Shown: in pieces, positions 62,829-63,628 of the stretch
Layout of the letters: every line of letters starts with the position of its first letter
Numbering within the stretch: position 1 is the first letter of the stretch
Assembly (NCBI RefSeq): GCF_988243305.1
Contig: NZ_OZ547136.1
Reading direction: 5' to 3' (one strand)
DNA: 64,000 nt
Made by a program: the position numbers and the translations under genes
Notes under the pieces: generated by a model
The model's database searches: none
Seen by the model: the letters and a program-made list of their open reading frames with translations, nothing else
Told to the model about the DNA's origin: nothing

Positions 62829-63164
62829 ATGCCCGCTAATGCTCGCTCTCACGCTGTACTGACCACTGAATCAAAGGTCACGATACGCGGACAAACAACT
62901 ATCCCCGCGCCAGTGCGTGAGGCCTTAAAACTGAAGCCAGGCCTGGACAGCATTCATTACGAAATTCTGCCTGGTGGGCAAGTATTTATGTGCCGACTGG
63001 GAGATGAACAGGAGGATCATACTATGAATGCATTTTTGCGTTTTCTGGATGCAGATATCCAGAACACCCCGCAAAAAACTCGTCCATTCAACATTCAACA
63101 AGGAAAGAAACTTGTCGCTGGCATGGACGTCAACATTGATGATGAGATTGGCGACGACGAATAA
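62829..63164 (+). CDS. prlF: antitoxin PrlF (SohA), AbrB-type
   Basis: 111-aa ORF; stop overlaps yhaV start. Confidence 0.9.
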   Translation: MPANARSHAVLTTESKVTIRGQTTIPAPVREALKLKPGLDSIHYEILPGGQVFMCRLGDEQEDHTMNAFLRFLDADIQNTPQKTRPFNIQQGKKLVAGMDVNIDDEIGDDE

Positions 63165-63628
63165 TGGATTTTCCACAAAGGGTTAATGGTTGGGCGCTAT
63201 ATGCTCATCCCTGTTTTCAGGAAACCTACGACGCTTTAGTTGCCGAAGTCGAGACATTAAAGGGAAAAGATCCTGAAAATTATCAGAGAAAAGCCGCCAC
63301 AAAGTTATTGGCGGTAGTCCATAAAGTGATTGAGGAGCATATCACGGTCAATCCATCATCACCGGCATTCCGTCATGGCAAGTCGTTAGGCTCTGGGAAA
63401 AATAAAGACTGGTCACGGGTAAAATTTGGTGCTGGTCGTTATCGTCTCTTCTTTCGTTATAGTGAAAAAGAGAAAGTCATCATTCTGGGATGGATGAACG
63501 ATGAAAACACTCTGCGCACCTACGGTAAAAAAACAGATGCCTATACCGTATTCAGCAAAATGTTAAAAAGAGGACATCCTCCTGCCGACTGGGAAACCCT
63601 CACCCGAGAGACAGAAGAAACCCATTGA
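63164..63628 (+). CDS. yhaV: toxin YhaV (RelE/ParE-like ribonuclease)
   Basis: 154-aa ORF translationally coupled to prlF. Confidence 0.9.
   Translation: MDFPQRVNGWALYAHPCFQETYDALVAEVETLKGKDPENYQRKAATKLLAVVHKVIEEHITVNPSSPAFRHGKSLGSGKNKDWSRVKFGAGRYRLFFRYSEKEKVIILGWMNDENTLRTYGKKTDAYTVFSKMLKRGHPPADWETLTRETEETH

Follow-up and report, generated by a model that had tools for sequence, protein, structure and literature searches.

The window, by which we mean the whole 64-kb stretch of E. coli chromosome that was analysed, carries two toxin-antitoxin (TA) loci, whose features are listed in Table 1 together with the others discussed below. The first locus, prlF-yhaV, follows the gene order garD, prlF, yhaV, agaR, and the second, higBA, sits between rlmG and fadH at a distance of 42.2 kb. 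The original prediction had placed the two loci 43 kb apart, slightly too far.

Table 1. Positions of the features of the two TA loci and of other features of the window, with the basis of each assignment.
Feature	Position	Strand	Basis
513-aa ORF with three internal repeats (each about 120-150 aa)	14733..16274	+	part of 3.4-kb insertion
IS3-family element, two ORFs, adjoining the 513-aa ORF	16467-17824	-	profile matches
IS3-family orfB, 240 aa, NF033516 300 bits, rve	17189..16467	-	profile match
IS3-family orfA, 176 aa, HTH_28/HTH_Tnp_1	17824..17294	-	profile match
fadH	18014..20032	+	
14-nt direct repeat GCGTCGCATCCGGC, downstream copy bracketing higBA	20048..20061	-	repeat search
177-aa in-frame fusion ORF: HigB(1-36), Gly-Glu-Lys, HigA(1-138)	20077..20610	-	ORF list, PDB chain comparison
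higA, encoding the HTH repressor and antitoxin (138 aa; 100% identity to K-12 HigA, PDB 5IFG chain B)	20077..20493	-	sequence comparison
Former higA Shine-Dalgarno region GGGGAAAAA, now the Gly-Glu-Lys linker codons	20494..20502	-	sequence
Junction of the 194-bp deletion, TTTCA/AAGGGG	20503..20505	-	alignment with intact alleles
higB remnant, reduced to codons 1-36 (product identical to K-12 HigB 1-36, 5IFG_A)	20503..20610	-	sequence comparison; PGAP pseudogene in same-allele genomes
Single 19-nt repeat TTGCCAATCTGTCAACGGA, imperfect palindrome, probable HigA operator	20622..20640	-	sequence; promoter biology from PMC2814082
14-nt direct repeat GCGTCGCATCCGGC, REP-like, upstream copy bracketing higBA	20764..20777	-	repeat search
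rlmG	22002..20866	-	
rnpB (RNase P RNA, class A, 318.6 bits)	56043-56419	-	Rfam scan; ordinary
Perfect palindrome TAATGCA-TT-TGCATTA over the -35 of the prlF promoter-like site, candidate PrlF/YhaV operator	62757..62772	+	inverted-repeat search
Sigma-70-like promoter 5' of prlF (TTTGCA, 17-nt spacer, TATAAT; 10/12 matches)	62764..62792	+	promoter scan
prlF (antitoxin, 111 aa, full length)	62829..63164	+	PF15937, NF007429, 109/111 identity to K-12
TAATG, prlF stop and yhaV start sharing one base	63162..63166	+	read directly from sequence
yhaV (ribonuclease toxin, 154 aa, full length)	63164..63628	+	PF11663, 154/154 identity to K-12

The prlF-yhaV locus

The earlier claim that prlF and yhaV are both full length was borne out by the ORFs, by the family matches and by the identity of the products to those of K-12. 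In profile searches, PrlF matched PF15937 (E = 1.7e-40) and scored 166 bits with the NCBIfam equivalog NF007429 (cut-off 125), as a PrlF-family antitoxin with an AbrB/MazE-like N-terminal DNA-binding fold, and YhaV matched PF11663 over residues 12-150 (E = 7.8e-54), as a full-length YhaV toxin. A sequence search of a 2026 copy of the PDB returned no related solved structure for PrlF or YhaV, the best E-values (0.15 and 0.0023, respectively) belonging to unrelated proteins.

PrlF-YhaV is listed among the well-characterised TA loci (PMC2814082) and is the type II TA system of E. coli K-12 attributed to Schmidt et al. (2007, J Mol Biol 372:894; cited in PMC11869752). The locus of the window shares with that of K-12 the position between garD and agaR, the gene order, the gene lengths and the one-base overlap, and differs from it by two substitutions in PrlF: compared with the K-12-derived sequence L007, PrlF is identical at 109 of 111 residues (98%), with the changes Q39L and N80T, and YhaV at all 154 (100%). 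This exact PrlF variant is present on 516 public contigs. From the identity to the K-12 proteins we infer that YhaV would cause growth arrest and that PrlF would neutralise it. The region around prlF-yhaV matches 5,359 of 5,426 complete E. coli genomes, in which the genes bear the same names, and 5,118 of them at a coverage of at least 80%.

The two genes form a bicistronic antitoxin-first operon with overlapping genes in the conserved garD-agaR context. The TAA of prlF (63162-63164) and the ATG of yhaV (63164-63166) share one base, the sequence reading GAA TAA TGG, so that the overlap originally predicted at 63161-63166 was correct to within one base. In our own reading of the sequence, no convincing Shine-Dalgarno motif precedes the yhaV ATG. 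Because of the stop/start overlap and of the lack of a good Shine-Dalgarno before yhaV, translational coupling of the two genes is plausible, and YhaV would probably be translated by ribosomes terminating on prlF. Upstream, the promoter-like site of prlF comes after a terminator-like hairpin of garD, and the palindrome that covers its -35 may be the operator of PrlF/YhaV. By every sequence criterion, the prlF-yhaV locus is intact.

Structure of the higBA locus and of its promoter

In K-12, HigBA (YgjN-YgjM) is a toxin-first system made of a RelE-like ribosome-dependent mRNA interferase and an HTH antitoxin (PMC2814082; PDB 5IFG, 5YCL, 6KML). The higBA locus of the window has the same rlmG-fadH position and the same orientation, with the higB remnant upstream of higA in the toxin-first order, a HigA that is 100% identical to that of K-12 and a HigB whose residues 1-36 are identical as well; unlike K-12, it is without HigB codons 37-104, and what is left of HigB is fused in frame to HigA. 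The boundaries of the deletion, drawn from an alignment with the intact alleles L004 (K-12-derived) and L003, enclose 194 bp and meet at a 2-nt AA microhomology whose A residues can be assigned to either side, which makes the exact break ambiguous. The loss probably occurred by illegitimate recombination at this microhomology. In the intact operon higA overlaps higB by a 4-nt ATGA and is thus in the +2 frame; since 194 equals 2 modulo 3, the deletion has brought the truncated higB into frame with higA.

The original prediction that higBA had lost most of its toxin proved correct. The deletion removed 68 of the 104 HigB codons and, with them, most of the PF09907 domain (HigB_toxin, RelE fold), which the intact protein matches at residues 20-92; the 36-residue remnant has no Pfam match, and the higBA locus of the window contains no complete HigB_toxin gene. 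A single-sequence AlphaFold2 model of the fusion, of low confidence (mean pLDDT 54, pTM 0.46), has two helices in the HigB remnant. Since 68 of 104 codons are lost and the remnant is without a Pfam match, the HigB toxin cannot plausibly be active: what remains would amount to two predicted helices, with no beta-sheet and no catalytic core.

HigA, on the other side of the junction, is full length and retains its C-terminal HTH (XRE) domain, with fusion residues 40-177 being 100% identical to 5IFG_B and a match to PF01381 at 1.8e-07. The locus therefore holds, in cis, an orphan antitoxin, that is, an intact higA with no functional higB alongside. HigA could be translated from the higB start, giving the 177-aa fusion, or from its own retained ribosome-binding site, giving the native 138-aa protein, and may act as an orphan HTH repressor and antitoxin. 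The analysis covered the 64-kb window of this genome; an intact higB elsewhere in it, which would count against the original prediction, is unlikely, because a second copy of the central higB segment was found in only 3 of the 2,827 genomes that carry this segment.

As a separate observation, the HigA part of the ORF (fusion residues 63-176; window 20077-20421) matches positions 1-118 of the 402 of the PADLOC model PD-Lambda-2_B (E = 1.6e-14). The match indicates that a HigA-like module is built into the PD-Lambda-2_B component of that phage-defence system.

The promoter region also differs from that of K-12. The K-12 operon has a single promoter upstream of higB, which is repressed by HigA and induced via Lon-dependent HigA decay, and no start site was observed before higA (PMC2814082). 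In K-12 and in some other strains, two copies of the 19-nt repeat lie 29 nt apart, with a -10-like TATCAT hexamer between them; the assignment of the -35 and -10 elements of this promoter (TTGCCA, TATCAT) is our own reading of the sequence. Comparison of window positions 20611-20660 (minus strand) with L004 and L010-L014 revealed two 19-nt direct repeats, TTGCCAAT[C/T]TGTCAACGGA, with a 29-nt indel polymorphism between them, and the window has the short form, without the second repeat and without the TATCAT hexamer. This short form is shared by L001 and L002, which carry the junction, and by L003, in which higB is intact, so that it is independent of toxin loss; conversely, the junction occurs on both promoter backgrounds, the long two-repeat (K-12-like) one and the short one-repeat one. 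A consensus promoter scan found no sigma-70-like site in 20000-20900. Because the 29-nt segment with TATCAT is missing and no sigma-70-like site was found, expression of higBA in the window is uncertain. The locus could be silent, in which case the conservation of HigA would reflect recency or recombination and not function.

The whole module is bracketed by the 14-nt repeat GCGTCGCATCCGGC, which occurs just twice in the 64 kb, directly on either side of higBA, and exactly once in the empty-site allele L006. This pattern could result from loss of the whole module by recombination between the repeats, or could be the footprint of the original insertion.

Distribution and origin of the deletion allele

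The frequency of the higBA alleles was determined in the 5,426 complete E. coli genomes. The junction was searched with a 48-nt probe made of two halves, each too short for the 28-nt seed word, so that it seeds only across the junction; an 81-nt probe was unusable for counts, its halves being joined across intact higB. The 194-bp junction of the window was found in 20 genomes (0.4%), with one chromosomal copy each, from human, marmot, cockatoo, monkey, pig and gull hosts, and the exact 177-aa protein is encoded on at least 999 public contigs, all from E. coli. The central higB segment that is absent from the window was present in 2,827 of the 5,426 genomes, which were taken as having an intact higB, and a different deletion, that of L005 (NZ_CP025251.1), was present in 1,520. 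These three classes sum to 4,367, in agreement with the 4,360 genomes with any higA-containing locus; by subtraction, about 1,060 genomes have no higBA, and the empty site was checked directly in L006 and in E. coli GMF065.

The deletion of the common orphan allele, L005, corresponds to window positions 20503-20690 and differs from that of the window in that it removes the upstream region and the 5' part or most of higB, without creating a fusion, and takes out the sole promoter mapped for the K-12 operon. The HigA protein of the single copy examined, that of L005, is identical to that of K-12 (7 synonymous and 0 nonsynonymous differences).

A complete HigBA between fadH and rlmG has been reported in K-12 and HS and an orphan higA at the same place in CFT073 and NRG857c, with yhaV-prlF conserved in all four strains (PMC7232551). 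The window resembles the B2 strains CFT073 and NRG857c in that the toxin is lost and the antitoxin kept at the same locus while prlF-yhaV is conserved. That higB is lost and prlF-yhaV near-universal has been described before as a pattern of the whole species (PMC7232551). The toxin-deleted higBA of the window is not a new feature; polymorphism of this kind is common and has been both annotated and published.

With regard to annotation, RefSeq/PGAP describes the identical junction as a 'higB, incomplete, missing C-terminus' pseudogene followed by higA in FDAARGOS_1285 (NZ_CP070152.1) and MEW (NZ_CM192120.1), which have the same junction and the same short promoter as the window and differ by a few SNPs and by HigA T127A or V53A. 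Other depositors have named the 177-aa ORF 'mRNA interferase HigB', 'antitoxin HigA' or 'hypothetical protein'. With such contradictory names, TA censuses that count toxins by name can mis-score the allele, although beyond correct annotation it has little importance.

The original prediction would have failed had the fusion turned out to be the ancestral state. As judged from the alleles compared, the fusion is derived, since the missing 194 bp are a contiguous part of a gene that encodes a full RelE-fold PF09907 toxin with solved structures, and since the central higB segment is present in most of the genomes having the locus (2,827). An ancestral fusion was rejected on these same two grounds, the intact PF09907 gene and the central segment in the majority of locus-bearing genomes. 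A collapsed or mis-assembled higB, which would make the junction a sequencing or assembly artefact, was rejected as well and can practically be dismissed: independent complete assemblies of the long-read era share this junction (20 genomes), as do hundreds of draft contigs, the exact ORF being on at least 999 contigs, and the reading frame is clean and the flanks colinear.

The flanks were compared in 250-nt bins. The window is colinear with E. coli GMF065 over its whole length (nfeF to agaR), save for two differences near fadH, and its nearest match among complete genomes reaches 99.0-99.1% identity over 24 kb. On the fadH side, the window has 15 differences in 2,250 nt from GF60, which carries an intact higBA, and is 5-6% away from the junction genomes; on the rlmG side (20650-22150), it is closest to the junction-carrying L013, and beyond 22150 to GMF065, which has the empty site. 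Over 17900-24400 we observed strong mosaicism, with successive tracts nearest to three different strains, which have intact, junction-type and empty higBA sites, respectively. The divergence of fadH between E. coli genomes, up to about 6%, seems, as an impression, high for a core gene.

The original prediction had presented the intact and the toxin-deleted locus as a case of differential TA decay within one strain. The contrast itself holds, and the idea that the deletion is an event of this strain does not, the junction being shared with the 20 genomes and the at least 999 contigs mentioned above. A deletion that arose de novo in the strain's own lineage would agree with the near identity of the fadH flank to GF60, and the microhomology of only 2 nt offers no sequence feature for or against recurrence. 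Nevertheless, the identical junction lies on divergent backgrounds, a deletion is unlikely to have arisen more than once at the same base with so short a microhomology (2 nt), and the rlmG flank best matches the junction-carrying L013, as expected for import or retention by recombination. We consider such a private and recent decay very unlikely. Such different backgrounds sharing one junction with no more than a 2-nt microhomology speak for one origin and subsequent recombination, and against decay within the strain of the window; since the window is a recombination mosaic at higBA, its junction allele was probably inherited or imported by recombination.

The explanation that we hold with high confidence is that the window combines an intact prlF-yhaV of the K-12 type with a higBA that carries an old, circulating 194-bp deletion of the toxin, in which HigA has been kept and which did not arise in this strain. 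The old deletion allele circulates in E. coli and probably reached the strain by inheritance or by recombination, and it appears to be one of at least three independent routes of toxin loss at higBA, in contrast to the almost universal prlF-yhaV.

Between the window and K-12, higA shows 5 synonymous and 0 nonsynonymous codon changes, and in ten other copies we counted 0-7 synonymous and 0-1 nonsynonymous differences. Among eight copies of the junction allele (six distinct sequences), 7 codons have synonymous polymorphism only and 2 have an amino-acid change, which gives a pN/pS of 0.05. The estimate comes from a small sample and supposes that the allele arose once and that intact alleles have not converted it. 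With these reservations, HigA still looks constrained by purifying selection after the loss of the toxin.

This conservation could also be read in favour of the fusion itself. HigB(1-36)-Gly-Glu-Lys-HigA would then be a functional and positively maintained 'tethered' antitoxin, spread by homologous recombination and providing toxin-free immunity (anti-addiction) against higBA mobile elements or an altered regulation of HigA. The HigB helices might, for instance, alter the stability, dimerisation or operator binding of HigA, or the synthesis of HigA might be tied to the ribosome-binding site of higB. In agreement with this, the fusion ORF is undisrupted and encodes the same amino-acid sequence in lineages with flanks 4-6% apart, the pN/pS of the higA part is low among junction alleles, five of the seven other junction copies are free of substitutions in the HigB remnant and two have a single synonymous one there, and the allele is found on mosaic backgrounds, as would be consistent with spread by recombination. 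However, a third of deletions would be in frame by chance alone; higA is equally conserved in intact alleles and in the non-fused deletion allele, so that its conservation is not specific to the fusion; the junction allele is rare, at 0.4% of complete genomes, the non-fused orphan allele of the L005 type being 75 times commoner; the AlphaFold2 model (pLDDT 54) is uninformative; and the retained ribosome-binding site of higA means that native HigA may be the main product. Selection for the fusion appears very unlikely on this balance of evidence.

The rlmG-fadH locus is a place where one chromosomal TA module appears to have been lost by three separate routes, namely an internal deletion of the toxin, a deletion of the promoter and the 5' part of the toxin, and a probable loss of the whole module at the 14-nt flanking repeat, with the antitoxin protein conserved and prlF-yhaV nearly universal. 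The pattern agrees with the accepted idea that cells can do without chromosomal toxins and that antitoxins can persist as orphans.

Other features of the window

In an Rfam scan of the window for RNA-antitoxin loci, rnpB was the only family that reached the gathering score. Compared with the nearest complete genome, the window has a 3.4-kb insertion between ygjK and fadH, which includes positions 14445-16460 and the 513-aa ORF. The protein has no match in Pfam, NCBIfam or PADLOC and carries no annotation beyond 'hypothetical protein' (WP_096990307.1 of GF60, for example). Its region is present at a coverage of at least 80% in 251 of the 5,426 complete E. coli genomes, and in GF60 the gene occurs without the adjoining IS3-family element.
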